The notes beneath the pieces are model-generated. The model made no database searches. It was not told the DNA's origin and was given only the letters and a program-made list of their open reading frames with translations. The translations under genes were made by a program, and so were the position numbers. Below, piece by piece: positions 1,427-44,420 of a stretch of 64,000 nucleotides of DNA; within the stretch, counting starts at the first letter, position 1, and each line of letters begins with the position of its first letter. The DNA is from a bacterium (GTDB lineage Bacteria; Patescibacteriota; Minisyncoccia; Phycocordibacterales; UBA9973), in contig JAKAKW010000002.1 in assembly GCA_021824345.1 (NCBI GenBank), forward strand, positions 22,552 to 86,551, given 5' to 3'.

Positions 1427-3010
1427 ATGGAAACGTTAACAAAAAAGCAGAAGCAGGTTCTTGATTTCATAAACGCATACAGGGCGGAGAACGGCATTTC
1501 GCCCACGATCGAGGAAATAAGAAAAGGCCTGAAGCTGAAGGCGGTTTCTACCGTGCACGAGCACGTGAATGCCTTGAAGGAGAAAGGATACATATCCGGC
1601 GAGGAAAATTCTGCAAGAAGCCTTGTTCCTAAAAAGGCGATAAAGACGATAGTTGAAATCCCCATAGTGGGAAGAATAGCCGCGGGCGACCCTATTGAGG
1701 CTATTGAAGACTTTCAGGACACTGTTTCCATATCCGATCCTTCAATAAAAAGCCACAAAGATTATTACGCCTTGAAAGTGGCAGGCGATAGCATGATAGA
1801 AGAGGGAATATTCGACGGAGATATAGTGGTGATAAAAAAGCAGTCTTCGGCGGAAAACGGGCAGACGGTTGTTGCTATCATTGATGATGAAAAAGCCACC
1901 TTGAAGAAGCTATACAGGGAAAAAGACCGATTCAGGCTGCAGCCGGCAAATTCAAGGATGAAGCCTCTTTTTAGGACGGAAGTAGAGGTAAGGGGAGTTG
2001 TGGCGCAAATAATCAGAAACTTGGCTAATGCGCAAAATACCGCAGAGGAGAAAAAGGTGACAACAAGCAAATTCAGGACAATTGATTTATTCGCGGGGAT
2101 AGGAGGAATAAGGATAGGGTTCGAGAAGGCAGGGTTTAATACCGTCTTTGCAAACGATTTCGATGAACAGTGCAAGAAAACCTATGATTTGAATTTTCCT
2201 ACTTCTAAATTGGTGGTGGAAGACATAAGAAAACTAGGAATAGAGGATCTACCTGATTTTGATTTTCTCTTGGGCGGGTTTCCTTGCCAGGCCTTTTCCA
2301 TAGCGGGGTATAGGCAGGGCTTCAAGGATGAAAAGGGAAGAGGAAACTTGTTTTTTGATATTGCCAGGATAATTGAAGCGCGGAAGCCTGAAGGGTTCCT
2401 GTTGGAAAACGTTAAGAATCTTAAAAGCCACGACAATGGCAAGACTTTCAGAGTGATAGAAAAAACCTTGAAAGAATTGGGATATCACATACAAACAAAA
2501 GTTTTGAATACCATGGACTACGGCAATGTTCCGCAGAATAGGGAAAGGATATACATAGTCGGGTTCAAGGATAAAAATCGCGCGGATAGGTTTTCCTTCC
2601 CCGAGCCCGTAAAGCTTAGGAGGAAAGTCACCCATTTATTGGATAAGAAAGTTCCAGAAAAATATTACTATAACGGCAAGCCTCTTTATGAAAAGCTCAA
2701 GCATTTTGTAAAAGAAGAGGGAAAAGTATATCAGTGGAGGCGCCAGTATGTGAGAGAAAATAAGAGCGGAGTATGTCCGACCTTGACGGCGAATATGGGA
2801 ATGGGGGGGCATAATGTGCCCATTATCAAAGACAAGAAAGGAATACGGAAGCTTACTCCCCGGGAGTGCGCCCGCATACAGGGATTCTCCGATGATTACA
2901 AGCTTCCCGAAATTGCGGATTCCGCGCTATATAAGCAATTAGGGAATTCTGTCAGCGTGCCTGTTATAGAAGCAGTAGCCAAGCAGATGAAGAAAGTTCT
3001 AAACGGCTAA
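1427..3010 (+). CDS. fusion protein: full-length LexA (winged-helix domain, Ala-Gly cleavage site, S24 Ser/Lys dyad) fused to a C5-cytosine DNA methyltransferase
   Basis: N-terminal 205 aa aligns with LexA: VGRIAAGDP (cleavage site), GDSM (Ser), KKLYR (Lys), VVAQIIRN. C-terminal domain carries MTase motifs I (DLFAGIGG), IV (GFPCQAFS), VI (ENVKNL) and X (QLGNSVSVPV). Confidence 0.85.
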   Translation: METLTKKQKQVLDFINAYRAENGISPTIEEIRKGLKLKAVSTVHEHVNALKEKGYISGEENSARSLVPKKAIKTIVEIPIVGRIAAGDPIEAIEDFQDTVSISDPSIKSHKDYYALKVAGDSMIEEGIFDGDIVVIKKQSSAENGQTVVAIIDDEKATLKKLYREKDRFRLQPANSRMKPLFRTEVEVRGVVAQIIRNLANAQNTAEEKKVTTSKFRTIDLFAGIGGIRIGFEKAGFNTVFANDFDEQCKKTYDLNFPTSKLVVEDIRKLGIEDLPDFDFLLGGFPCQAFSIAGYRQGFKDEKGRGNLFFDIARIIEARKPEGFLLENVKNLKSHDNGKTFRVIEKTLKELGYHIQTKVLNTMDYGNVPQNRERIYIVGFKDKNRADRFSFPEPVKLRRKVTHLLDKKVPEKYYYNGKPLYEKLKHFVKEEGKVYQWRRQYVRENKSGVCPTLTANMGMGGHNVPIIKDKKGIRKLTPRECARIQGFSDDYKLPEIADSALYKQLGNSVSVPVIEAVAKQMKKVLNG

Positions 3011-3571
3011 GCCTTTCATTTTTTTGAACAGGTTTTCCATATCCTTTAAATCATCCCAATATACGAACATGTTATCATTATTAAAAGACATGCCTTTAAA
3101 GTTTTTACCCGCGGCTAGTTCCTGAAAATCATTCCTAGAGGCCCAGCCCCTTCTTTCAACTCGTATGCCGTTAAGAGCCGGAAAATCAGAAAATATTTCT
3201 TCTCCCCGGCCTCCCAAGCTCCTGAAAAATCTCTGCCCGGTGCTGGATTTTTTCCAATGCACTTTATAGCCTATGAATAATCCCGCTTGCCTGTCTCCCT
3301 CGAATTCATTTTTTGAAATCAGCATGAAATACTGCACGTCTTTTACCTGTATCTTGGTTTTTGGGGCAAAATAAGAACCTCCGGAAAACTTTATTTTCTT
3401 TACATCCTGCCCCTCATCTGTGTTTGAGGTTCCGATATAAAAATCCCTGTTCAGTTCTATACCTATACCATGTTTCTCGCAGTCCATCTTAAAGGCCACT
3501 TCATTTAAAAGGCCTTTAGTAATATCCATCATGGCCTCTATATCATATCTTGTTTTTCCGCTTGAATACAA
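2999..3571 (-). CDS. hypothetical protein
   Basis: 190-aa ORF with no recognisable motifs. Overlaps the MTase 3' end by 12 nt on the opposite strand. Confidence 0.35.
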   Translation of the reverse strand: MYSSGKTRYDIEAMMDITKGLLNEVAFKMDCEKHGIGIELNRDFYIGTSNTDEGQDVKKIKFSGGSYFAPKTKIQVKDVQYFMLISKNEFEGDRQAGLFIGYKVHWKKSSTGQRFFRSLGGRGEEIFSDFPALNGIRVERRGWASRNDFQELAAGKNFKGMSFNNDNMFVYWDDLKDMENLFKKMKGLAV

Positions 3572-6270: not shown

Positions 6271-6343
6271 ATATCTTATCTTGGAGGCGGTTCGATTCCT
6301 GTCTGGTCAAAACCCCTTGCTATTGTTAGCTTAGAGAAAATCC

Positions 6344-6448
6344 GTGTCCCCGGCTCAGGAGATTATTATAACCATCCTATCGGATGGGGAATATATGGGA
6401 AGTTTGTATAATAAACTGTTGTTAATAAAGGAAATGACAGCAATCTGA
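6344..6448 (+). CDS. small ORF family member 2 (34 aa: VSPAQEIIITILSDGEYMGSLYNKLLLIKEMTAI)
   Basis: GTG start preceded by the conserved upstream leader ttgttagcttagagaaaatcc shared with copy 3. Confidence 0.45.
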   Translation: MSPAQEIIITILSDGEYMGSLYNKLLLIKEMTAI

Positions 6449-6494
6449 AAAAGATTAGTCTAAGGCTGTAAGATAGCTGTATAATAATAGAGAG

Positions 6495-7277
6495 ATGAAA
6501 ACAGCAATGCCACAAAAAGTAAAAAAAGTACTTGAAGAACTTTCAAATTTTTTTCAAGAAGTTCTAGGGAGAAATTTGGTTGGAATATATTTACACGGCT
6601 CATTAGCTATGGGGTGTTTTAATCCGGCTTCAAGCGATATAGATATTATTGCAGTTATAAAAGGCAAATTATCTTTACAGGCGAAGAATAAATTGCAGGC
6701 CGGAATTAGATTATCATCAAAAAAGTATCCACAGAACGAGTTTGAGATAAGCGTAGTGAAACAAGATGTATTGCGTAAGTTTAAATATCCTACGCCTTTT
6801 GAATTTCATTTTTCAAAATCATCTAAAAATGTAAGTGCCAAAAACAATACGGGTTACGATAATGACTTGGTTGCCCATTTTGCCATGGTTAAAAAGAGAG
6901 GACTCTGTTTATATGGAAAACCAATTAGGTCAATTTTTCCCAACATACCCAAAAAGTATTTTCTTAAGTCTATAGCGCAGGATGCCAAATGGAGTGCGGA
7001 AAATGTGCGCAAGGCAAAAGAGAAAGGAAAATGTCCTGTACCGACTTATGCCGTATTGAACTTTTGCCGGGCCATTGCTTTCATCAGAAGTAATGAGTTC
7101 TTTTCAAAGAAGGAAGGCGGTGAATGGGGTCTAAAGCATCTACCGAAGAAATATGCGCCAATAATAAAAGAGGCGTTAAAAAAATACAGGAAAAGAAATT
7201 CCGCAAAGACGGTTGATTCCGAACTATTGAAACAGTTTAGCGAATATTCTTGGAATGTAATAAAGAAATATTACTAG
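6495..7277 (+). CDS. AadA/ANT(3'')(9)-like nucleotidyltransferase (NTase fold plus DUF4111-like C-terminal domain)
   Basis: GIYLHGSLAMGCFNPASSDIDIIAV fits the GS...DxD NTase motif. C-terminal LPKKYAPIIKEALKKY resembles the AadA C-terminus. About 260 aa, as in AadA. Confidence 0.6.
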   Translation: MKTAMPQKVKKVLEELSNFFQEVLGRNLVGIYLHGSLAMGCFNPASSDIDIIAVIKGKLSLQAKNKLQAGIRLSSKKYPQNEFEISVVKQDVLRKFKYPTPFEFHFSKSSKNVSAKNNTGYDNDLVAHFAMVKKRGLCLYGKPIRSIFPNIPKKYFLKSIAQDAKWSAENVRKAKEKGKCPVPTYAVLNFCRAIAFIRSNEFFSKKEGGEWGLKHLPKKYAPIIKEALKKYRKRNSAKTVDSELLKQFSEYSWNVIKKYY

Positions 7278-7330
7278 CTCGATCCCGGTCTGGTCAGAAT
7301 ACCTTGCCATTGTTAGCTTAGAGAAAATCC

Positions 7331-7435
7331 GTGTCCCGGCGGGAGGAGTTTATTATAACCATCCTTTCGGATGGGGAATATATGGGGAACTTATATAATA
7401 AATTGTTGTTTATAAATTCCCTGAAAAATTCTTAA
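7331..7435 (+). CDS. small ORF family member 3 (34 aa: VSRREEFIITILSDGEYMGNLYNKLLFINSLKNS)
   Basis: GTG start, same upstream leader as copy 2. Confidence 0.45.
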   Translation: MSRREEFIITILSDGEYMGNLYNKLLFINSLKNS

Positions 7436-7452
7436 ATGGTTTTTAGTAAAAA

Positions 7453-8091
7453 CTATTTGCCTAATTCTTGAGCTGATTTAGCAACTTCATCGTTGAACAT
7501 TCCTTGAATACCTGCTACGTATTTGTTCGCTTCTTCACCCGTAACCTCGGTTGATTCACCTGTGGCAAAATTTACCGCCTTAACAACATACCCGTTATTT
7601 TCGGCAGAAATGTCGTAAATAAATACATTCTCCGGGTCAAGGTCAGCCTCGACTTTCGCATTTTCTTGTAATTTGTCCAATGGTGTGAATGCGTCCATTT
7701 CATTAAAAGCTGATTTCTCACCTTTTATACCCGAGGTTTTATTCAAAACCATTCTGTCAGCTGAGCCATCAAGATTGTTATCGATAAGTAGTCGCCCTCC
7801 ATTCTTTTCTTCACTCATCATCCATTTTGCCTTTCCATTTTCATCATAACCCACGATTAATTTCTGACCATCGGGCGATACCCATTTCTCTACTTTTGTA
7901 TTTCCAATATTGCCTTTCTGGCCTTTCTCTGATATTTGCAAAACAATCTTTTGCTCATTCTGTTTAGCCAGAGCTTTTAGGTCATCTATGTTTTTTCCTC
8001 CTTTTTCTAAAGCTTGGGCAAACCCGGGAAGATTCATAAGTACGGACAATGCTACTACTTTTGATACAGTCTTTATCTTTTCAAAATTCAT
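7453..8091 (-). CDS. secreted hypothetical protein (signal peptide)
   Basis: N-terminal hydrophobic segment ALSVLMNLPGFAQA. Confidence 0.45.
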   Translation of the reverse strand: MNFEKIKTVSKVVALSVLMNLPGFAQALEKGGKNIDDLKALAKQNEQKIVLQISEKGQKGNIGNTKVEKWVSPDGQKLIVGYDENGKAKWMMSEEKNGGRLLIDNNLDGSADRMVLNKTSGIKGEKSAFNEMDAFTPLDKLQENAKVEADLDPENVFIYDISAENNGYVVKAVNFATGESTEVTGEEANKYVAGIQGMFNDEVAKSAQELGK

Positions 8092-8252
8092 AATATTTGC
8101 TAGTTATTCTTAAATTAAGATATGGTGATTGCGACGTTTTATTTATACAATTTTTTTGTAAATGATACAAGATAGCCAAGTGACTAGGACACTTCTAGTT
8201 ATAAGTACCATCTCCTAACGACAAAAGAGCCTTAGTTTATAAGGACGAAAAT

Positions 8253-8351
8253 TTGTCCGCGGTCCAGGAGATTATTATAACCATTCTTTCGGATGGGGAA
8301 TATATGGGGAGCTTGTATAACAAGCTTCTTTTTATTAAGGAAATGAGATAA
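8253..8351 (+). CDS. small ORF family member 4 (32 aa: LSAVQEIIITILSDGEYMGSLYNKLLFIKEMR)
   Basis: TTG start with AGGA 8 nt upstream. Confidence 0.45.
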   Translation: MSAVQEIIITILSDGEYMGSLYNKLLFIKEMR

Positions 8352-8379
8352 AATAAAATATTTTAATTTCCAAGAACCT

Positions 8380-9468
8380 TCATACTGCTTGTTGGCTACC
8401 TTTTATTTTTTCAAACAAAGACCGTAGAAAGTTTAAATACATTTCTAATAATTTTTTATGAATATATTGAAAATCTTCTTTCAAATAAGATTCTGATAAT
8501 TTATTCTCCTTTAATACTTTTGAAAGTTTTTCCTCTGACTGAGGATGTGCGGCAATCCTTATTACTATATTATTCAAGGTCCTTAGCCCGTATAAATCTT
8601 CTCCCACCTTTATTTTTTTGGATAGAAGGTATAGATGCAATAAATTTATACTTCCAGAAAGTTCATTTAACCCATTTATTTCTTTTCTTGCCTGATCTAA
8701 AGAAAATCCATGTTTTGAGAGATCCTCAGCATTTAGATCCTGGATGAACACTCTCAAATCCATGCAACGCCCCATTAATTCTGCTAATTTAGTCGGGCCC
8801 TCAATCTGCGAAATTATTCGTTCAGAGTCTGGAAATAAAGTAAATTTAAATCGATTATCTTCCACAGCTAACAAATTTATTTTTTTTCTTAATTCTGAAA
8901 TCTCTTTTACAATTTCAGTATTGTTGTATTTTTTTTCCTGTTCTTCTTCTTTCTCAATTTCTTTTCTCTTTATATTTTTTGAATTATTCTCTATAAGTTC
9001 TTGCGCACGATCAGAACCTTCCTTTGAAATTTTCTCTTTAATTTTTTCTATATTAGAGCCTTTCCATTTTAAAATTTCTTTTACGAATATAATCTCTGAG
9101 CTTTTACCCTTTATACTTTCGAAATTTTTTGAATAATATTCAAGCTGGTCTTTTGGATTTTCTCTAAGAAGATATTGTAACGATAGAACTCTTATGTCGC
9201 GTCTTACATTTTCGTTTTCAAATATTTCCTTCAAAAGAAAAACAATTTTGTTTAAGGATTTTGTTCTTAACATATATCCTAACAATGTGGTAATAATAGA
9301 TTCATTGGGGTCTGACGAATTCAATTCTTTTAGAGTCAAAGTGAATACTCTATCTGAAATGAAGTGTTCTTCCAAATTGTTTTCATTTAGAAACTCCACA
9401 GCATAAGAAAAATTAATGTCCCTTGTCTCTTGTTTTGAAAGGATTTCGCGGAAAGCCAAGCAGAGCAA
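8380..9468 (-). CDS. hypothetical protein, Lys/Glu-rich coiled-coil
   Basis: 362-aa ORF, AT-rich, no recognised motifs. Confidence 0.35.
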   Translation of the reverse strand: MLCLAFREILSKQETRDINFSYAVEFLNENNLEEHFISDRVFTLTLKELNSSDPNESIITTLLGYMLRTKSLNKIVFLLKEIFENENVRRDIRVLSLQYLLRENPKDQLEYYSKNFESIKGKSSEIIFVKEILKWKGSNIEKIKEKISKEGSDRAQELIENNSKNIKRKEIEKEEEQEKKYNNTEIVKEISELRKKINLLAVEDNRFKFTLFPDSERIISQIEGPTKLAELMGRCMDLRVFIQDLNAEDLSKHGFSLDQARKEINGLNELSGSINLLHLYLLSKKIKVGEDLYGLRTLNNIVIRIAAHPQSEEKLSKVLKENKLSESYLKEDFQYIHKKLLEMYLNFLRSLFEKIKGSQQAV

Positions 9469-9623
9469 TCAAAGTACGAGGTCAGCTGCGGCATCGCAAC
9501 CCCCAACCTGACTCAAGCGGAGAAGAAAGTTGAGAATTCTAGCCAATAAAATTGTAATTACCTACGCAATTTCAAAAAGGGAATACCAATCTAATAATAT
9601 TGATTCAAGACAATCACAAAACT

Positions 9624-11255
9624 TTATTCCATGATTTGGCCATCCCCGTCGTCAAGTTTGAATAAAAATTTCTGATTTTTTTTATCGAATGTAACGACCG
9701 GAAGGAGAACTTCCTCGAAGGTTGTTTTTTTATCTGCCATGAGTTCCCCGCTCAAAATTTTTGGTTTTATATCCTTGTAAAGAAATTCGATCATCTTTTT
9801 TCTTTCCTTACCTACTATACTTACTTCAGTCCCGTTAACCTTAAATCCAATGATATACAAATATACCTTCAAGACTGAAGGGAAAAATCCTTTTACATTA
9901 GACATAAAATCACCATTTATTTTTTCCCAGATTAGACCTATGATGGTTTCTGATAGTTTTTCAAATCCAGAAGTAAGGGAATGGAGTGGAATCGTCTCTC
10001 CCACAGTTTCCATTGCTAATATTCTTATTTTCCCATTGTATTCTTCCTTTACCTGGGCTAGGGATTCAATAAAACCACAAACAGTTTTTGCATAGGCAAA
10101 ATTTATGCTTGAACGGAATTCGTTGTCTTTTTTAACTTCCGTTTCATATATAGAGGCCTGTTTCCTCTTTAATGCTTCTTTATATTCTCGTATATAAGTA
10201 TGACCAAGAAAAAAACTTATTGTCTGGAGCCGAGATACAGCTTCTTTATGTTTGTTTTTTTCTTTACTTGAAAAAGCAAGTGACTGCGAGTAATCATTTA
10301 GTTTATCCAGTCCATTACAGATCTCTCTTCTCATTTCTACTGGACAATTATTTTCCCAATATCCTTTGATAGCATATTCTAAAGATTTTAAATAAACTGC
10401 CAAATATTTTTCATGTAGTCTGTCAAATTTACAGAAACTATAATCATTTCCGAATACACAAAAATTGTCTAGAAAATATGGTTCTGAAAATATTGCCTCA
10501 AAGGCATTAAGGGCTAGGGAAGTACCCCTATAATCAAGTTGACTATAAAAATATGAACTCTCTTCTCTAAACAATAATTCGATAATTCTGTCTAGTCCTA
10601 ATTGAGTATGGGCAGATGTGATTCTATATTTCTTGAATGTAGCTAGCAAATATAAAATAAAATCTATCCTCCCGGTTGCAATATATCTTGCTACTCTCTC
10701 TTCGCTTAAAATTACAGTTGTGACGGCATTGGCATAAATAGCATATTTTTCCTCATCGGAAAGGATATAATCCTTATCTCTTTGAAAAGGTATTGAGCTG
10801 ATACCAGCCAGTGCCTTCGTTATATTTTCAAGGTTGGCTCCCAGAATATCAATACAGACATCGATGTTATCAATTTTAGGTTTAGTTATTTCTCGTAGAA
10901 TAATGTTATAAAACTTTTCTGCACGCCTCTTGTTGAATAGCCCCTTCTTTCTTTTTCCGAAAAGTAGCAAACTTAATGGGGCAAAAATAAAACATAAGTA
11001 TCCTAAGAACTGCCAAAGAAATGTATTGTTCAAAAAAGAAAGGGGTAAACTAAAGAATTTTTGTTGGATAGTGATAGCAATGGCTATAGATACAAGCCCC
11101 CCAACACCCATGTACCATATTAAGTTTCTTTGCCATGAATCTCTAATTTTCAAAACAATGTCCCAAGATTTGTCTTTGAGTTGAAATACGGCAAAAATTA
11201 AACCGAAGGCGGCTACGGCCTCACCTAAAGAAAAATGTATTATGTTATCTGCCAT
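9624..11255 (-). CDS. membrane protein (N-terminal TM helices plus large cytoplasmic domain), last gene of the type I R-M operon
   Basis: Hydrophobic N-terminal 100 aa. Starts 43 bp downstream of the hsdR stop on the same strand. Confidence 0.45.
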   Translation of the reverse strand: MADNIIHFSLGEAVAAFGLIFAVFQLKDKSWDIVLKIRDSWQRNLIWYMGVGGLVSIAIAITIQQKFFSLPLSFLNNTFLWQFLGYLCFIFAPLSLLLFGKRKKGLFNKRRAEKFYNIILREITKPKIDNIDVCIDILGANLENITKALAGISSIPFQRDKDYILSDEEKYAIYANAVTTVILSEERVARYIATGRIDFILYLLATFKKYRITSAHTQLGLDRIIELLFREESSYFYSQLDYRGTSLALNAFEAIFSEPYFLDNFCVFGNDYSFCKFDRLHEKYLAVYLKSLEYAIKGYWENNCPVEMRREICNGLDKLNDYSQSLAFSSKEKNKHKEAVSRLQTISFFLGHTYIREYKEALKRKQASIYETEVKKDNEFRSSINFAYAKTVCGFIESLAQVKEEYNGKIRILAMETVGETIPLHSLTSGFEKLSETIIGLIWEKINGDFMSNVKGFFPSVLKVYLYIIGFKVNGTEVSIVGKERKKMIEFLYKDIKPKILSGELMADKKTTFEEVLLPVVTFDKKNQKFLFKLDDGDGQIME

Positions 11256-11298: not shown

Positions 11299-13755
11299 TT
11301 AATTCACTAAAGCATATACCTTTTCTTTTAAACCCAGCACGAACCCGAAAAGCCCTCCGGGGTACTTGGCCTGGATGGCTTCCTTTTTTGCGTTCATATT
11401 AGGCAATAGGAATGCTTGCGACGATAGATTTTCCTCACCACTGGTTTTGTACTTCTCCATAATGTCACGAATGGCTTCGCCGATTTCCTTGCCATATTGG
11501 TCAAGTGTTTGAGTATTTGCGCGCATGAATTGTTTAACTCGGTCCTCACGAGTCAGAAGGGGAGCGTCAAATGCTATATGCGCTATAACGTCGAAAGCGT
11601 CACTATCCTCTAAGTTCTCTATGGATTTGATTAGTGGAATGTTCACGTGTTTAGTTTCTAGGTCGGTTATGAGTAGTTCGCGTTTCTCTGGGTCAAGCCA
11701 TATTTTACGGAGTTCATCAGTGGTGTGTACCATTTCGGTTATCCTTTCACCGGAATACTTGCGATACTCTGCTTTTGAGAGCTTGATGCCGTCGAATTCT
11801 ATCTCAACCTCCTCATCAATACTCACCTCAATGCCTTTGACTATAATTTTCTTAGGAGTACCCTTGAGCGGCTTCAGGCGGAATTCATAGGGTGTTTCTG
11901 CTTCTGATTCATGCGGTTCAAGACGCTTGCTCAAATTTTTGTAATCGGCGTGCTCAATTTGTACAGACACTTCACCATTTGTCGGCAAACCGAATATCCT
12001 AAATAGACCGTCGTTGTCGGTTTTACCGATCTTCTCCCAGCGCCCGAGCTTAACTTTCACCACAGCGCTTGCCACATGCTCTTCTGTCTTGTTATTGACC
12101 ACTACACCTGTGATTAGTTTATCAAAAGGCGGTATCGGTTCTTCTGGGGTCGTAGGAGGCACTGGCGGTTGAGGAGCTACGTCCCACTCGTCCAGGAGCC
12201 GGGTAGCGTTTGTAAAATCAATAACGCGGAAGAAACCCTTACCTTCAGAAAGACGAGAACCTCGTCCTAATATCTGTTTAAACAGCACCCGTGAAGCTAT
12301 AGGACGCATAAAGACGATATTTTGTACGTGGGGGATGTCTACCCCAGTAGAAAGCAAATCTACTGTTGTTGCAACGACTGGTAAGGTACGTTCTTTGTCT
12401 CGAAAGGCAGTTAAGTCATCTTTGTCCTCAGCTACAATACGGGTAGCGTAGTCCTCGCGTCCCTTTAGTTCGTTTAATTTATCTTGTACCGCCTGTGCGT
12501 GTGCCATATCAACACAGAAAACGATAGTTTTTCCATAAGGGTTTGTTTCGTCAATCAGCTCAACCACCTTTTTTGCCAGCAGACCTATTTGCTCGGGAAT
12601 AGTGACGGCGCGTTCGTATTCTGATGGTTCGTAGAAATCTTTAATATCTTCTGGTTCAACTTCATCGTCGTATATAATTTCTTCTGCTGCGGCGACGGAG
12701 AGCCCTTTACGGTACAGATTCGTAGTGACCTTGTAGATTTTGTACGGTACGAGATAGCCGTCTTCAATAGCTTGCCCTAGGGAATACTGGAATACCGGTT
12801 CACCGAAGTATTCGTATACGTCAATATTGTCTTCCCGGCGTGGAGTTGCTGTCATGCCGAAGTGTACAGCAGAAGTGAAGTGATCAAGAATTTCTCCCCA
12901 GTCACCAAATCGCGAGCGGTGACATTCATCAATGACAATCAGATCAAAAAAGTCAGCTGGTATCTGCTTGTAGAGATCATTCGCGAAGAGCGTCTGGTAT
13001 GTTGAGAAATAAACGTCCCGGTTGCGATTGAAGTCACCACCTTCTATCTTTGCGCGGCCTTCGCCAAATGGTTCAAAATCTCGGCTATAGGCATCATCGC
13101 GCAGAATTATACGGTCACAAAGAAAAAGGATACGATGCATCGTTTTTGATTTCATCAATTTCCAAACAATTTGAAAGGCAGTGAATGTTTTACCAGTGCC
13201 GGTGGCCATTGTAAGAAGTGTTGTACGATTTCCTTTGATAATGTTTCTAACTACTGCATTGATCGCGGTTTCTTGATATGAACGCGGGCGCTTGGTACCA
13301 CTAATGTGAAGCGGATATTCGAGTGCAGACAACTTAGCATTTTCTAACCCTTTCCATTCTATGTATGCTTTATACATATCTTCAGGCGATAGGAAAGAAG
13401 AAACTGACTCTGGCGCTTTATTTGTGCGCCGATCATATAGGTATGAGGACTTGCCGTTAGATATATAGGCAAATGGTACGTCAAGACGCTCAGCATAATT
13501 TTGCACCTGTTTAATATGTTTCATCAAGTCCTCGTCCTCTGCTTTTGCTTCAAGCACTGCTACTGTAACTTGGTTGAACTGGACCACATAATCAGCAAAG
13601 AGCGAAGTCGGAAGACGTTTATATTCTTCTCCTTCAACGTAAAAACGATCGTCAGAAATAGGGTAGTTGCGAAGAATATATTCCTCTTTCCACCCTGCCT
13701 CGTGTATTTTGGGATCTATTATTTTGACTCTTGTGTCGTCCTCTGAAAAGGTCAT
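11299..13755 (-). CDS. hsdR: type I restriction enzyme R subunit (HsdR) with a C-terminal extension
   Basis: N-terminal PD-(D/E)xK (ADYVV...LEAKA). Helicase motifs TGTGKT and DECH. C-terminal region has a transthyretin/CarbopepD-reg-like segment (TDNDGLFRIFGLPTNGEVSVQ) and an EcoEI_R_C-like tail. Confidence 0.85.
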   Translation of the reverse strand: MTFSEDDTRVKIIDPKIHEAGWKEEYILRNYPISDDRFYVEGEEYKRLPTSLFADYVVQFNQVTVAVLEAKAEDEDLMKHIKQVQNYAERLDVPFAYISNGKSSYLYDRRTNKAPESVSSFLSPEDMYKAYIEWKGLENAKLSALEYPLHISGTKRPRSYQETAINAVVRNIIKGNRTTLLTMATGTGKTFTAFQIVWKLMKSKTMHRILFLCDRIILRDDAYSRDFEPFGEGRAKIEGGDFNRNRDVYFSTYQTLFANDLYKQIPADFFDLIVIDECHRSRFGDWGEILDHFTSAVHFGMTATPRREDNIDVYEYFGEPVFQYSLGQAIEDGYLVPYKIYKVTTNLYRKGLSVAAAEEIIYDDEVEPEDIKDFYEPSEYERAVTIPEQIGLLAKKVVELIDETNPYGKTIVFCVDMAHAQAVQDKLNELKGREDYATRIVAEDKDDLTAFRDKERTLPVVATTVDLLSTGVDIPHVQNIVFMRPIASRVLFKQILGRGSRLSEGKGFFRVIDFTNATRLLDEWDVAPQPPVPPTTPEEPIPPFDKLITGVVVNNKTEEHVASAVVKVKLGRWEKIGKTDNDGLFRIFGLPTNGEVSVQIEHADYKNLSKRLEPHESEAETPYEFRLKPLKGTPKKIIVKGIEVSIDEEVEIEFDGIKLSKAEYRKYSGERITEMVHTTDELRKIWLDPEKRELLITDLETKHVNIPLIKSIENLEDSDAFDVIAHIAFDAPLLTREDRVKQFMRANTQTLDQYGKEIGEAIRDIMEKYKTSGEENLSSQAFLLPNMNAKKEAIQAKYPGGLFGFVLGLKEKVYALVN

Positions 13756-13775
13756 ATTTTTATAAATTGCTATTT

Positions 13776-14456
13776 CTATCCTTCGCTTGGTTTTTTCTTT
13801 GATTCAGCGAGTGCTTTTAATTTTTCTGAACGAGTGCGCCGGTTTTCTCGATCAACATACCAGTCATCCACTAATTGTTCAATTAGGCCAATTAGAAGCT
13901 GGGCTTCTTCTGGCTCAACTTCAATGATGACGTTTATATCTTTTTCCATGTGTGCTCCAATATTCCCTACGCTTCTCACAGCATCAATACTAGTCCATGT
14001 GTCCGGATCAACTTTTTCTTCCAGAGCGTCAATCTCATCTTTCAAACGTGCCATTTTAATGTTCCAGAAGTCGCGTATCATCCCCTGGAGACATCGTCGT
14101 GCAAGCGTAGCCGATGCCTTTGGGCTTAGATCACGTATACGGCACGCTTCGTAGTAATTTTCTTGTATAGGTTTCGGTATATACTCTGGAAGTACTTTTG
14201 CCTCTGACTCCGGGAGTAAGCGCCACGTCTTTAGAGCTGCAGATTTTTTCCATTCACCATATTGCCAATAGGTACCGGTAAGCTCTGCAACAAGTGTTAG
14301 CTGTTGGCATTCTTTGTTAGGGCAAGTGACAGCAGAAATTCCGAAGCCAATATCCCCAAGGGTAGGTTTGGATATATTAATCTTATACCACATCGAATCT
14401 CGATTGGGATCAGTGATTGTTGTATGTCTTCCGCAAAATGGGCAAGTGTAGTTCAT
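13776..14456 (-). CDS. DUF4145-like protein with an N-terminal zinc ribbon, common in type I R-M loci
   Basis: CPFCG...CPNKEC zinc ribbon. Helical C-terminal domain with ARRCLQGMIRD. Confidence 0.5.
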   Translation of the reverse strand: MNYTCPFCGRHTTITDPNRDSMWYKINISKPTLGDIGFGISAVTCPNKECQQLTLVAELTGTYWQYGEWKKSAALKTWRLLPESEAKVLPEYIPKPIQENYYEACRIRDLSPKASATLARRCLQGMIRDFWNIKMARLKDEIDALEEKVDPDTWTSIDAVRSVGNIGAHMEKDINVIIEVEPEEAQLLIGLIEQLVDDWYVDRENRRTRSEKLKALAESKKKPSEG

Positions 14457-14467
14457 GAATAAATTTA

Positions 14468-16735
14468 TTATTTAATAAATGCTTGGCCTAGCACTGATGG
14501 ACGAAACCTAGCAAAATACTTTGCTTGTTTTGAAAACAATTCCCCTAACTCCTTGGACATGTCAAACATCTTGTCCAGAGTGTTTGCAATATACTTTTGT
14601 TTTTCAACGTCAAGTTTTCCATCCTTAAATGGAATTGGTATCTCAACTTTTCCAAGATTAGTGCGGCTAATTCTCTTTCGTGAAGAACCTGTGACCATTT
14701 GGTATACCTGAGATCGTGCATCATCTGAGTTTAGGAAGTAGTTAATGTAACGTGGGTCATAATCTTGTCCCAAGCGGACGATAGTACAATCAACCGCTGT
14801 GAGCATACGATGCCCTGTTTTTGGTACGATACATGATCGTCCGACCGGGTCAGGGAGTCGAGATACAAGAATATCTCCAGGCAAAATCTCTGTACAGTGT
14901 AAGCGCTGAAAAGTTTGCTCATTTACAAAACGCTTAGTTTCCTTATCTCGAAAGTCAATCACTCCTATGTTTCCGGTCTGTACCAGCCAATACCCTTGAG
15001 AAGATTGATCTTTACTCTCAATCCAGTTGCCGTCGTTGAAGAATGTACAAATGTCTGCAAGTGCAAAGCGTTCAACATCAGTATTGGAAAATGTTCTTTC
15101 TAATTCACTCTTAAGTGATGCTAATATTAATTTAATTTCTTTCTGCTTATCCTCTATTTTTATAATGATTTCAGCAGGCGGTAAGAGTACTTCATTCTCA
15201 ACACTACTAGGGTTCTTGGGTGAAATATCCCAGCCGTGCTCCTTTATGGTATCCACTGAAACGATCCACGATGTGTTAGATACCTCGCGACGTTTCCATT
15301 TCTCGAATATATCTTGTAAGTGCTCATCCTGTACCGTCTTCTTTTTCGTAAATTTACCTTGTACTTCGCCGTACCATATTTCCTTTGTCGCGCCTGTTTT
15401 CTCAAAGAAGACAAGGTTCGTTTTTACGCCCGCGCCCATCTGTGAGAATGTACCTTGCGGAAGTGAAATTATAGCGGAAACATTGAATTTTGTTAGAAGT
15501 TCTTCACGAATACGAGCCGTTGCGCCACCTCCGAACATAATGTTTCCTTCAGGTAAAATAATGCCACAGCGCCCTCCATTTTTAAGGCGTTTCATCACAT
15601 ATTGCAACGCAAGACCTTCAGTTGCCCCTATTTGGATAGGATAGTTGTTTTGTACTGCTTTTGATTCTTCCGCACCGAACGGTGGATTGGTAAGAATTAC
15701 ATCAACTTTCTCGCTTTCCGGCATATTATGCACGTCTTCCATGAATGTGTTGGTGCGTGTAAGGTTTGGAACGAGTATGTGATGGAGAATAAGGTTCATC
15801 GTACCTATGAGAAACGGTAGCGGTTTCTTTTCCTGCCCATATAGGGTGGAAGTTTGGAGAGTATTCCATGCACGCACGTCTTTCGCAGAGTTCTCGAACA
15901 TGTGGTTAAAACTCTCAACGAGGAAACCGCCAGAGCCAACAAATGGGTCCAGAACTGTTTCGCCTAACTTTGGGTTGACGATGCTTACCATAAGGCGTAT
16001 AAGCGGTCTTGGACTATAAAACTCTCCGGACCAGCCGCCCTCGCTACCCATCGCCTGCAGTATTTCTTCGTATACCTGTGAGAGCAGGTTTGTGTCTTGA
16101 AAATGATGCTTCTCTATTTTATCTAGCACATCGATAACATCCAACAAGTTGTGAGCAGAACGGACACGATTGCCCGGCAGTTCGCGAAAAATCTCTCCGA
16201 TTTTATCTCGGCGTGGATCTCCTTTCAGTGCTTGAAGATAAGGGAAGAGTTTTTGGTTTACAAAATGCATTAATTCATCCTTATCTTTCCAATCTTTCTT
16301 CGCCCATGCTGACCACTGGTACTCTGCATCGATGACCGGCTTGTACTTACGGCCTTCTGCCTCCTCGAGTTCTTTTAGTTGCGTCTCAACGCCTTCAAAT
16401 ATTTTTAGGAAGAGGATCCACGAGAACTGCTCGATATAATCCTTTGCCCCTACACCATCGTCACGACGAAGAATATCGCAAACATGCTTAATGTCCGCCT
16501 TTGTTAAACTCTCACGTTTAGAAACCATTTCTTTCTCTACTTTATGCGCCATCTCTGGGATTTTACCTTCAACGAATGTTTTTAGATCGCTTGTGGAAAT
16601 GCGCCATGTCCCCCCTACCTTCTTCGCAGATAGTTTTTTATTGTGAATGTAACGGAAAGCAGTCCGCTCACTCACGTGGAGCATATCTGCAACTTCTTCC
16701 AAGGTATAAAGGCGATCAGATGTATCTTTTGTCAT
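14468..16735 (-). CDS. hsdM: type I R-M HsdM N6-adenine methyltransferase fused to a single HsdS target-recognition domain; N-terminal excisionase/MerR-like HTH
   Basis: Motif I DPFVGSGGFL and motif IV NPPFG. C-terminal Methylase_S-like TRD. N-terminal LYTLEEVADMLHVSERTAFRYI HTH. Start probably MTKDTS at 16735; the ORF is open up to 16795. Confidence 0.8.
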   Translation of the reverse strand: MTKDTSDRLYTLEEVADMLHVSERTAFRYIHNKKLSAKKVGGTWRISTSDLKTFVEGKIPEMAHKVEKEMVSKRESLTKADIKHVCDILRRDDGVGAKDYIEQFSWILFLKIFEGVETQLKELEEAEGRKYKPVIDAEYQWSAWAKKDWKDKDELMHFVNQKLFPYLQALKGDPRRDKIGEIFRELPGNRVRSAHNLLDVIDVLDKIEKHHFQDTNLLSQVYEEILQAMGSEGGWSGEFYSPRPLIRLMVSIVNPKLGETVLDPFVGSGGFLVESFNHMFENSAKDVRAWNTLQTSTLYGQEKKPLPFLIGTMNLILHHILVPNLTRTNTFMEDVHNMPESEKVDVILTNPPFGAEESKAVQNNYPIQIGATEGLALQYVMKRLKNGGRCGIILPEGNIMFGGGATARIREELLTKFNVSAIISLPQGTFSQMGAGVKTNLVFFEKTGATKEIWYGEVQGKFTKKKTVQDEHLQDIFEKWKRREVSNTSWIVSVDTIKEHGWDISPKNPSSVENEVLLPPAEIIIKIEDKQKEIKLILASLKSELERTFSNTDVERFALADICTFFNDGNWIESKDQSSQGYWLVQTGNIGVIDFRDKETKRFVNEQTFQRLHCTEILPGDILVSRLPDPVGRSCIVPKTGHRMLTAVDCTIVRLGQDYDPRYINYFLNSDDARSQVYQMVTGSSRKRISRTNLGKVEIPIPFKDGKLDVEKQKYIANTLDKMFDMSKELGELFSKQAKYFARFRPSVLGQAFIK

Positions 16736-16851
16736 GCTGGGTATGATAGTCCAAGATAAATATTTTGTCAAGTTTTGGCAAGTATTGTAATACACTTGCC
16801 ATTTTATGACAACTTTATATTTGACATGTTCCCGTCTTTTTATTTTCTAGA

Positions 16852-17342
16852 TCTCCCGCGCGCGTAGGAAAAATCCGATTTTATCCCAGTACTATTTTTG
16901 CTTTTCTACTTTGTTACTACTAGCTATTTCTTCATTTTACCCCTATTCGGATTGAATTTTGGTTTTCGGGCAGTTTTTTCAGGTAACCCGGGGGTATTTT
17001 TTCTTGCCCTGACAGCTCTAAGACGTTCCCGGCATTCCCTGAGTTTTTATTTTCCCTCACGCGCGCGAGAAAATCCAAATCTATCACAGTCATATTTTCA
17101 GGATTTTTCTTTGTTATCATTAGGTATTTTCCCATTCTACCCCAATTGTGATTGGCAGTGCCGTTTTTTGTCTCTTTTTGGACGAAATCTTTTTTAGTTG
17201 AGTTATAATTTATAGATCACCTCGCGCGCCCGCGTGCGTAGAATAGAAATTTATGAAAGAGCTATTTTTGTGTTTTACGTTGTAATTACTAGATATTTCT
17301 CGTTTTTTGCCTATTTCAATTGAATTCTTGCAATTAAAGAGC
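16852..17342. repeat. three degenerate direct repeats of about 150-200 bp, each beginning with a CGCGCG box in otherwise AT-rich DNA
   Basis: Units begin near 16855, 17060 and 17222 (cgcgcgcgtaggaaaaatcc / cacgcgcgcgagaaaatcc / cgcgcgcccgcgtgcgtagaatagaaa) and share downstream tracts such as ctatttttg...ttactactag. Confidence 0.5.
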
Positions 17343-18281
17343 ATAACCAGGAGTTTTTGCGTAGGCCAACTGCCTCGTTCCGCCGTCCGCGAGCTCGTTC
17401 AGGGGGTGCTTGGTCATCTGCGATCGCAGGTGCTCCGCGCTGGCTGCCAGGTATATCGTGGTGGTCTTTATGTCGCTATGTCCCATCATTTTGGATAGGG
17501 AATAGATGTCGCACCCGCCCTCAAGCATCAGGGTTGCGAAAGTATGTCTCAGCTTGTGGACCGTAAACCTTATCTTCGATACCTCCCGTATTCTGTCTGT
17601 CAACACTTTCAGCCCGGAGTCTGTGAATCCCATGTTGCATCTGGATGACACGAAGAATTCCGGGCACGTTCTCCCTAGTTTTTTCCTTTCTTCCAGGTAT
17701 CTTTTCAGCGTCTGCGCCAGCGTGTAGCTCATCGGTATTATCCTATCCTTACTCCCTTTCCCTTGCCTTACGAAAATGGTCAGGTTTTCCAGGTCCACGT
17801 CCGTAAATTTAAGGTTTAGAAGCTCTTGTTTGCGCAGGCCGGCGAAGATGAAGGTAGAAAAGATCGCATGGTTGCGATAGCGCAGAAACTTTGTCCCATA
17901 AGGATAATTGTAAACAACCTCCAACAGCCGGAGCGCGTCCTGTTTGGTCAGCTTCGGCGGGAGCTTCTTCTCCAGCTTTGGCTTTTCAATGTCTATCACC
18001 GGATTCTTTTCCATGTAGCCCTGCTTTATGCACCAGCGGAAGAATACCAGCAGGGTTTTGTGGTAAATGATGAACGTATTTGTGGACCAGCTGCGCTGGA
18101 TCCGTCCGTAATAGAACAGCTCTCGCACATTCTCGTCCGTGACCTGGCTGATTTCCTTTACGCCGGCGGATCGGCAGTAATAGTTTATGATGCTCTTGTA
18201 TCTTTTAATGGTGGCTTTTGAATAGCCGCGAATGGAATCTGAATAGTCGCAAAATCTTTGCGCTAAAATTTCCATGTCCAT
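17334..18281 (-). CDS. tyrosine site-specific recombinase/integrase (XerC/XerD-like)
   Basis: R...HxLRHTFAT...Y catalytic motifs (HKLRHTFATLML, TTTIYL). Adjacent to tRNA-Lys. Confidence 0.85.
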   Translation of the reverse strand: MDMEILAQRFCDYSDSIRGYSKATIKRYKSIINYYCRSAGVKEISQVTDENVRELFYYGRIQRSWSTNTFIIYHKTLLVFFRWCIKQGYMEKNPVIDIEKPKLEKKLPPKLTKQDALRLLEVVYNYPYGTKFLRYRNHAIFSTFIFAGLRKQELLNLKFTDVDLENLTIFVRQGKGSKDRIIPMSYTLAQTLKRYLEERKKLGRTCPEFFVSSRCNMGFTDSGLKVLTDRIREVSKIRFTVHKLRHTFATLMLEGGCDIYSLSKMMGHSDIKTTTIYLAASAEHLRSQMTKHPLNELADGGTRQLAYAKTPGYAL

Positions 18282-18412
18282 ATGTTTGTTTGGCGTTCGG
18301 CGGAGCGTTTTATCCTGGAAAATTCTTTTTGGCCTCTCGACCTGTTTACTGCGGGAACTGGTCTAGGAAACAGCCCTATTTTCCAAAATACCCTTATTTA
18401 GCTTATATAATG

Positions 18413-18485
18413 TCCGCCCACTCGGGATCGAACCGAGGACCTTCTCCTTAAAAGGGAGCTGCTCTACCATCTGAGCTATGGGCGG
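18413..18485 (-). tRNA. tRNA-Lys (anticodon UUU)
   Basis: Cloverleaf folded by hand from the reverse complement: acceptor CCGCCCA/TGGGCGG, anticodon loop CUUUUAA, T-arm CTCGG-TTCGATC-CCGAG. No encoded CCA. Confidence 0.8.
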
Positions 18486-44170: not shown

Positions 44171-44217
44171 GCTCGGTCGCACCATTTGCTTCGCAAATGG
44201 TGCTCCCGGCAGGAATC
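44171..44217. repeat. 47-bp direct repeat copy containing the last 20 nt of tRNA-Arg plus 27 nt of 3' flank (second copy at 44319-44365, which includes the tRNA 3' end)
   Basis: gctcggtcgcaccatttgcttcgcaaatggtgctcccggcaggaatc occurs identically at both positions. Confidence 0.7.
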
Positions 44218-44345
44218 TCCCCCTACGGGGGCGGGTGCTTTTCCATTCGCTGGCGGTTTACCGCCAGCTCATAAGGAAAAGCCTTTCGATTCCCGCACGC
44301 GGGCAAAGCAGTTTGCCCGCTCGGTCGCACCATTTGCTTCGCAAA

Positions 44346-44420
44346 TGGTGCTCCCGGCAGGAATCGAACCTGCATCACAACTTCCGCAAAGTTGCATTCT
44401 ATCCATTGAACTACGGGAGC
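44346..44420 (-). tRNA. tRNA-Arg with an apparent GCG anticodon (unusual), encoded CCA
   Basis: Hand-folded: acceptor GCTCCCG/CGGGAGC, D-arm GTTC-AATGGATA-GAAT, anticodon stem CAACT/AGTTG with loop TTGCGGA, T-arm GCAGG-TTCGATT-CCTGC, then ACCA. Confidence 0.6.

Follow-up and report, generated by a model that had tools for sequence, protein, structure and literature searches.

A conserved structured non-coding element with gene-matching arms behind tRNA-Arg(GCG) and other tRNA and tmRNA genes

The gene encoding a tRNA-Arg with a GCG anticodon is located at 44346..44420 on the minus strand of the window, the whole stretch of 64 kb (64,000 nucleotides) analysed here, and its CCA end is encoded in the DNA. 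ARAGORN denotes the gene tRNA-Arg(gcg), and the Rfam tRNA model (RF00005) matches it with 68.3 bits against a gathering threshold of 29, in line with the preliminary description of this DNA. The same description called a GCG anticodon rare for bacterial arginine tRNAs, which does not hold for the CPR bacteria, where it is ordinary. We scanned with the last 20 nt of the tRNA, taking one genome per species, and obtained 85 stretches, nearly all from Patescibacteria. Counting the arginine anticodons over all fetched loci (numbered with L below) gave 48 gcg, 30 ccg, 21 tct, 16 cct, 8 tcg and no acg. CPR bacteria as a group have been described as lacking tRNA-Arg(ACG), with GCG reading both CGU and CGC (Shulgina & Eddy, eLife 2021, PMC8629427). 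The anticodon is already known and typical of the CPR/Patescibacteria lineage, and it carries no novelty.

The tRNA end takes part in an exact 47-nt direct repeat, whose copies lie at 44171-44217 and 44319-44365, 148 nt apart from start to start and separated by an insert of 101 bp, at the coordinates reported earlier. Each copy consists of the last 20 nt of tRNA-Arg and 27 nt of flank and includes a 16-nt arm hairpin. Read along the tRNA strand, the tRNA end (GATTCCTGCCGGGAGCACCA) is followed by the 27 nt (TTTGC-GAA-GCAAA, TGGTGCGACCG and AGC), by 101 nt holding three hairpins, and then by the 47-mer again. The 25-nt palindromic core of the 47-mer occurs twice in the window, both times in the repeat, with 0 occurrences expected from 100 shuffles. 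The three hairpins described in the insert (CCCCC-GTA-GGGGG, GCTGGCGG-TAAA-CCGCCAGC and GGGCAAA-CTGC-TTTGCCC) are found in the sequence as well as in minimum-free-energy folds, and the described pairing of the tRNA 3' end with its flank is present as an inverted repeat, GCACCATTTGC-GAA-GCAAATGGTGC. Fold z-scores against shuffled sequences were -10.8 for 276 nt folded as RNA and -8.7 for the 148-nt unit folded as DNA. The 101-nt insert holds no credible ORF. Within 10 kb on either side of the element there is no recombinase gene, the nearest being an Xer-like tyrosine recombinase gene (17334-18281, minus strand) at a distance of 26 kb.

The preliminary description had allowed for an assembly error. 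Short-k Logan contigs break inside the repeat, as one might expect if an assembler had collapsed or expanded it; a true repeat, however, would end such contigs in the same way. The 430-bp spacer is base-for-base the same in the NCBI MAG GCA_021842645.1 (contig JAKBYY010000001.1, which holds the window) and in a megahit k141 assembly from ENA (L002, ERZ27237554), and homologous architectures are present in many other assemblies. Because the separate ENA assembly carries the identical spacer, we take the repeat to be real and consider an artefact exceedingly improbable.

Dissection of the region showed that 44171-44345 comprises one complete copy, and the first 27 nt of a second copy, of a small non-coding structured element, whose family sits directly behind tRNA and tmRNA genes of Patescibacteria. 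All parts are on the minus strand and are given here in the direction of the tRNA. The last 20 nt of the tRNA, denoted A(1) (44346..44365), run from T-loop position 57 through the 3' strand of the T-stem, the 3' strand of the acceptor and the discriminator to CCA, and form the first direct-repeat copy. The mini-hairpin TTTGC-GAA-GCAAA (44333..44345), which contains GCGAAGC and appears both as an inverted repeat and in the folds, is the palindrome centre that joins A(1) to an inverted copy. The first part of this inverted copy, A'acc (TGGTGCGACCG, 44322..44332), corresponds to the acceptor 3' strand, discriminator and CCA in reverse complement, matching at 9/11 positions, and has counterparts in L103, L104, L106 and L082. 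It is followed by the H0 hairpin, GC-GGGCAAA-CTGC-TTTGCCC-GC (44299..44320), set between a conserved A-GC and a conserved GC-GT and supported by covariation: seven of its nine pairs have changed on both sides across the family, and 99% of cells are paired. The second part, A'T (GCGGGAATC, 44288..44296), is the reverse complement of the T-loop GATT and the T-stem 3' strand, seen as an inverted repeat, and acts as the 5' strand of a helix P1 whose covariation tracks the local T-stem.

Beyond A'T lies an invariant GAAAG (44283-44287), followed by P2 (44237..44282), in which an outer stem, GCTTTTCC/GGAAAAGC, with 8 pairs of which 6 have changed on both sides, surrounds a variable inner hairpin (44249-44268; GCTGGCGG-TAAA-CCGCCAGC in the window, GC-GAA-GC instead in L097). 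The invariant junction ACCCG, the P3 hairpin CCCCC-GTA-GGGGG and a junction A occupy 44218..44236; this block is invariant in the M1 sub-family, and P3 covaries in L106b, L082 and L029. A(2), in which the last 20 nt of the tRNA recur in direct orientation, is at 44198..44217; its first 9 nt are the 3' strand of P1, and the remainder can pair with A'acc. A second unit then starts at 44171..44197 with the mini-hairpin, A'acc and AGC and stops where H0 would begin, the exact repeat ending at 44171; a comparable partial second unit is present in L082. The covariance model described below matches 44198-44332 with 134.6 bits.

The 27-nt repeated flank is part of the element itself, namely its mini-hairpin and inverted acceptor arm, and the 47-mer is made up of A (20 nt), the GCGAAGC mini-hairpin, the inverted acceptor arm and AGC. 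The insert also holds an inverted copy of the tRNA end, so that in a single strand A' has two mutually exclusive partners: with A(1) it can give a long branched hairpin, with A(2) it can give P1 and an acceptor-like stem. The pairing of A' with A(2) would look like the acceptor/T-arm helix of the tRNA.

Further copies came from a metagenome scan with the invariant 24-nt core motif CCCGCCCCCGTNGGGGGAGATTCC. The scan detected the module behind a tmRNA gene (L103), behind tRNA-Glu (L104, with anticodon CTC, L107 and L109), behind tRNA-Met(CAT) (L105, as three tandem units) and behind a truncated tRNA of unassigned isotype (L106), and it found the tRNA-Arg(GCG) locus of L097 again as L108, on the same contig as L099. 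A homologue of the insert follows tRNA-Arg(GCG) in a Parcubacteria MAG (L039), where two of its stems show compensatory changes. With 8 copies as its basis, a covariance model recognised 12 copies at 100-145 bits and a second sub-family, behind tRNA-Lys (L082, L029), at 44-49 bits; over the 64-kb window it gave a single match and no further copies. Sub-families with other cores lie behind tRNA-Val, tRNA-Arg(TCT) and tRNA-Arg(CCG). The loci were sampled through two exact seed patterns, which makes the census a biased one, and in it a unit of ~130 nt with the same internal order and boundaries is present at at least 10 independent loci, behind five kinds of gene. Direct repeats of 13-20 nt analogous to that of the window are found in L097, L103, L104, L106, L012, L030 and L093. 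Some copies form arrays, with three identical units of 136 nt in L105 (100%) and diverged units in L083 (68%), L039 (65%) and L060 (47%).

The 8 copies align well, and RNAalifold assigns them four helices: H0 with 9 bp and a 4-nt loop, P1 with 9 bp, P2 with 8 bp and the variable inner hairpin, and P3 with 5 bp and the loop GTA. All aligned copies share the same joining strands, GAAAG, ACCCG and A. Among 12 distinct sequences, in an alignment fitted to the covariance model, 97.5% of cells pair and both sides change in 22 of the 31 pairs; none of 500 shuffles attained the observed values, and slid controls paired in 34-55% of cells. A model-free MAFFT/RNAalifold alignment pointed in the same direction, with compensatory changes at 12/31 pairs. 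Together these data demonstrate that the insert is the core of a conserved element, composed of H0 and a three-way junction of P1, P2 and P3 and backed by base-pair covariation.

Across the family the order in the tRNA direction is A(1), a short or terminator-type hairpin, A'acc, H0, A'T, the core (GAAAG, P2, ACCCG, P3 and A) and A(2). The arms differ between loci and copy the local gene, the T-stem and acceptor complements in most copies fitting Arg, Glu, Met, Lys and tmRNA respectively. The 5' side of H0 is taken up by the acceptor 3' strand in reverse complement, often extended through the discriminator and the trailer, and the tRNA end and this extended mirror make one long palindrome centred on the terminator or mini-hairpin. 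On its 3' side the T-stem 3' strand and T-loop follow in reverse complement, and 3' of the core comes a direct copy from the T-loop GATT onwards. In L029 and L106b, in which the T-loop reads GAGT instead of GATT, both arms are altered to match. H0 and P2 are nearly alike behind tRNA-Glu (L104) and another tRNA (L106), while the arms of these two copies are wholly different. An inverted T-loop/T-stem copy lies at most 450 nt downstream in 18 of 178 tRNAs, as against upstream in 4. In L039, L105 and L103, A(2) is degenerate or shrunk to GATTCC, indicating that A(2) is not always an intact displaced tRNA end.

Two ideas on the origin of the arms were rejected. An inverted arm templated by a mature tRNA, as at a primer-binding site, disagrees with mirrors that extend into gene-specific, non-CCA trailers (L104, L106 and L103). 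A duplicated or permuted tRNA gene disagrees with L104, in which the inverted acceptor arm reads GACCCTA, complementary to the 3' strand, whereas a copy of the 5' strand, which forms a G-U pair, would read GGCCCTA. The L104 arm and the non-CCA trailers in the mirrors together indicate that the arms were copied from DNA or a primary transcript, and neither from a mature tRNA nor from a tRNA 5' half.

Two layouts were noticed beside the family. In L120 (2100-2200, minus strand) there is a partial match to the core, GACCTTTTG...CAAAAGGTGTAC followed by CTCC-TGTAA-GGAG and GATTTC; no tRNA is called in this 2.4-kb locus, which stops at a contig end, and the matching copy could be remote from any tRNA, or its tRNA could lie past the contig end. 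In L070 (4972-5128, minus strand), from a Deltaproteobacteria MAG, behind tRNA-Arg(CCT) stand its 3' end in inverted form without interruption, a GC-rich stretch of 60 nt and the last 20 nt again in direct orientation; this is either a minimal mirror arrangement outside Patescibacteria or a binning contaminant.

The preliminary description had proposed comparing the locus with that of relatives, and we fetched orthologous loci through the neighbouring 170-aa protein. The element is present behind the orthologous tRNA-Arg(GCG) in the window and in L097, whose neighbouring protein is 75% identical. Counted from the sequences, the core of L097 is ~97% identical to that of the window apart from one hairpin indel, and the tRNAs are ~92% identical, with differences at 6/73 positions. 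At the same tRNA the element is absent from L094 (neighbouring protein 82% identical), L101 (68%), L112 (67%) and L113 (63%), at a divergence too large to place exact insertion boundaries. An empty and filled pair at tRNA-Glu was sought through the pyrophosphatase gene beside L104; synteny was lost and no tRNA was found there. In L110 a 4.7-kb island (6410-11170) begins exactly after the last base of tRNA-Arg(GCG), and L101, with an identical neighbouring protein, is empty at the corresponding position, 3136. The island encodes an HTH_3 protein, a trypsin-like peptidase, an S49 peptidase and a large serine recombinase of 444 aa, and its junctions lack the core of the element. Comparison of the L110 island with the empty site in L101 indicates that this tRNA end is a recombination target in the lineage.

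The spacer after tRNA-Arg(GCG) attracts several kinds of hairpin repeat, since in L113 (2096-2200) the downstream spacer holds other repeated palindromes, GTAAGGGGACCCCTTAC twice and TGCAAGGGGTCCCCTTGCA. Of the relatives that lack the element L094 is the closest, and past its tRNA terminator (3210-3360) comes a non-coding stretch of ~400 nt with a higher GC content; this stretch could be another small RNA.

Database searches of the element returned no known family. With Rfam 15 at gathering thresholds only tRNAs match in the window, and at E values up to 10 there was no consistent match over the core in the window, L103, L105, L106 or L107. IMG/VR was scanned with the tRNA 20-mer, a window-specific 28-mer, the 24-nt core and an 18-nt core, yielding only one chance match, inside a coding region; a viral origin was rejected because no viral contig in IMG/VR carries the element. 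Known RNA motifs were examined by eye and likewise rejected. The internal loop of P2 in the window (CUUAUGAG...CGAAU) is similar to a hammerhead core or a kink-turn, but the invariant positions differ and the loop is not kept in L039, L104 or L105; an HDV-type ribozyme would have a nested pseudoknot, which is missing; and a group II intron domain V would have a bulge and a GNRA loop, neither of which is present in H0 with its AGC flank. The Rfam searches agree with these rejections. A full-text literature search found no paper describing the element.

Among known systems, the att duplications of tRNA-targeting integrative elements, including non-autonomous cis-mobilisable ones that possess att sites only, are similar in that a direct repeat from T-loop to 3' end flanks an insert, the tRNA stays intact, arrays form at one tRNA and related genomes have what look like empty sites. 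The element described here, in contrast, is 130-200 nt long and gene-less, with no integrase gene in the insert, has an inverted att-segment copy split by a hairpin, and carries its core to at least five tRNA/tmRNA targets with arms changed to match. Folded single-strand sites (the attP(+) of CTX-phi, recombined via XerCD, and integron attC) would offer an analogy in being imperfect palindromes with a branched or variable tip, in having one strand that folds into a target-like duplex, and in forming tandem arrays; by the same analogy, the A'/A duplex would correspond to the double-stranded end of a tRNA gene rather than to dif or attI, and the sequence of its stem varies by locus. In tRNA-like RNAs such as the tRNA-like domain of tmRNA and the Y RNA YrlA, an acceptor-like stem is likewise stacked on a T-stem-like helix and the remaining tRNA body is replaced, whereas the element has a three-way junction in place of the T-loop, stems that copy the neighbouring gene, and no Rfam match. 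REP/BIME and other miniature inverted-repeat elements are also short, non-coding and hairpin-forming, lie after genes or terminators and are patchy among relatives; the element differs in its low copy number, its strict link to tRNA/tmRNA 3' ends, its arms taken from the local gene and its conserved multi-helix core. Nor does it fit a miniature inverted-repeat transposable element, for its inverted arms copy the local tRNA end instead of being element-specific, a short target-site duplication is lacking, and 64 kb contain one match; a single copy per 64-kb window counts against a typical high-copy miniature element. It is a miniature tRNA-end-associated element that, for each of the closest known systems, either lacks at least one defining feature or cannot be matched fully.

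As the best reading of these data we regard a non-autonomous mobile or integrative element that targets tRNA/tmRNA ends, and we give it about an even chance. The preliminary description had offered two alternatives, and its miniature element targeting tRNA ends comes closest; the other, a duplicated att site inherited from a large element since decayed, is poorly supported, given the same ~130-nt unit at many unrelated loci. Recombination within the segment from T-loop to 3' end of a tRNA/tmRNA gene would insert the element, which would bring along a new 3' end together with a hairpin or terminator, so that the 3' end would be found a second time further downstream; the recombination enzyme would be supplied in trans and encoded elsewhere. 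The second occurrence of the 47-mer in the window may be due to a second insertion or to unequal recombination, truncated later, and loss of the 148-nt unit would join the tRNA directly to ...CCGAGCTGCTGC.

The functional form would be the folded tRNA-sense single strand, as ssDNA or RNA. A 148-nt circle or single strand is predicted to fold as a rod, an A/A' stem with an H0 branch, capped by the mini-hairpin at one end and the P2/P3 junction at the other. Over 3.8 kb of element sequence from family members, the tRNA-sense strand carries GCGAAGC at 9 places and the complement of this motif at none. Folded as DNA, the sense strand reaches -55.2 kcal/mol and the antisense strand -51.2, the sense strand being better by 4. 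Wobble pairs occupy 7/361 cells, with 7 G-U against 3 A-C. In DNA, d(GCGAAGC) and loops of the C-GNA-G type show exceptional stability, and this together with the scarcity of wobble pairs makes us lean towards a DNA strand, with RNA as a further possibility. Simple recombination into a new tRNA would give a chimeric, dead tRNA, and the switching of targets is thus left without explanation under such recombination. The 5-nt complement of the target's T-stem, placed between the conserved H0 and the junction core, is not easily explained by ordinary DNA insertion.

The element may instead encode a small RNA or act in cis as RNA. It would be transcribed together with the tRNA or following it, and its fold would mimic the top half of the neighbouring tRNA: an acceptor-like stem and P1, H0 replacing the tRNA body and the three-way core replacing the T-loop. 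Such an RNA could be processed by tRNA enzymes, serve as a decoy, or act as a switch in which A' pairs with the tRNA 3' half or with A(2); the likeness of the cores would come from gene conversion between loci, and the arms would be held by selection. The strong covariation in four helices, the invariant junction nucleotides and the strand-asymmetric loop motifs point this way, as do the constant position directly downstream of the gene on the tRNA-sense strand, the two mutually exclusive partners of A', and the place of H0 between acceptor-side and T-stem-side arms, which is that of the D and anticodon arms in a tRNA. However, a canonical terminator with a T-run separates tRNA and element in L103, L104, L106 and L097 and leaves no space for a promoter of its own; A' mirrors A(1) and the trailer better than it pairs with A(2); the acceptor-like stem is absent or degenerate in about half of the copies; the 7 wobble pairs in 361 cells read as atypical for RNA helices; no Rfam family matches; and absence from the closest relatives implies that the element is dispensable. 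We therefore hold an RNA to be possible, at a distinctly minor probability.

Two further explanations were weighed. The arrangement may be the remnant of a larger integrative element, a prophage or island at the tRNA 3' end, reduced to two att copies and an att arm of ~100 bp; a direct repeat of a tRNA 3' end is the classic att signature, the relative L110 has its 4.7-kb recombinase-bearing island at this very tRNA, and the conserved block beside A(2) could be an attP arm. Independent deletions, though, would leave differing residues, and the ~130-nt unit keeps its order and boundaries at at least 10 loci behind five gene kinds, so that random deletion remnants are disfavoured; the covariation of the hairpins speaks for selection on single-strand structure rather than for decaying DNA, and the junctions of the serine-recombinase island do not contain this core. 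We consider a remnant unlikely. Alternatively, template switching at the palindromes of the T-arm and terminator may have produced a functionless, immobile triplication of the tRNA 3' end. In tandem inversion duplications, snap-back template switching gives a direct-inverted-direct order, and A, inverted A and A with hairpins at both junctions are what it would leave; the mirror takes in locus-specific trailers (L104, L103 and L106), and L070 has the minimal succession of A, inverted A, 60 nt and A. Such a local rearrangement is quite unlikely nonetheless, as the core that is not tRNA-derived (H0, P2, P3 and the junctions) is at least 90% identical across unrelated loci and species and shows compensatory evolution.

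Returning to the non-autonomous element that targets tRNA/tmRNA ends, its specificity might be achieved by base-pairing and not by a protein that recognises a single site. The mirrored arms, split by the H0 handle, would then be a rewritable guide to the local tRNA/tmRNA 3' end, as gene or as transcript, and the element would be a programmable mobile element targeting tRNA ends, or else a cis-encoded guide or decoy RNA for tRNA 3' halves. We put this forward as a doubtful proposal, and we know of no described bacterial counterpart to either form. The ends of tRNA and tmRNA genes are classic landing sites of mobile DNA, and to our knowledge every known system relies on an integrase devoted to a single site. 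In the present family, a single conserved non-coding core of 130 nt stands behind at least five different genes, with arms that mirror the local gene in most copies, and there is a modest chance that these target-matching arms reflect something categorically new. If mobile, the element would represent an undescribed way of recognising or copying targets; if an RNA, a new class of tRNA look-alikes, from bacteria about whose RNA biology little has been learnt. By placing exact repeats and long palindromes beside tRNA genes, the elements also break short-read assemblies of Patescibacteria, and they could be misread as prophage att sites.

Other features of the window and the fetched loci were noted in passing. 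The Xer-like recombinase gene lies 130 nt downstream of tRNA-Lys(TTT) (18412-18485, minus strand); behind it comes a type I restriction-modification set consisting of an hsdM-like gene (14468-16795), a DUF4145 gene (13776-14456) and an hsdR-like gene (11299-13755). The region 11299-18485 could be an island at tRNA-Lys or a recombinase-controlled restriction-modification locus; no second copy of the tRNA-Lys end that would delimit an island by the Xer-like gene is present in the window. On the plus strand, a fragment resembling the 3' end of a tRNA, GGTTCGATTCCTGTCTGGTCA (6288-6308), stands right behind a terminator with no tRNA called, and may be a leftover att copy of another insertion. Also on the plus strand, at 1427-3010, a single ORF of 527 aa combines LexA DNA-binding and S24 peptidase domains with a complete domain of a C-5 cytosine DNA methyltransferase; such a joining of an SOS-type repressor to a methylase is unusual. 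Verrucomicrobia contigs that share the tRNA 20-mer (L028, L031, L036, L040, L050, L056 and L079) contain dense arrays of 8-20 tRNA genes, including a 92-nt tRNA-Ile(TAT) call and Leu calls of odd length, and these arrays may be of mobile or viral origin.
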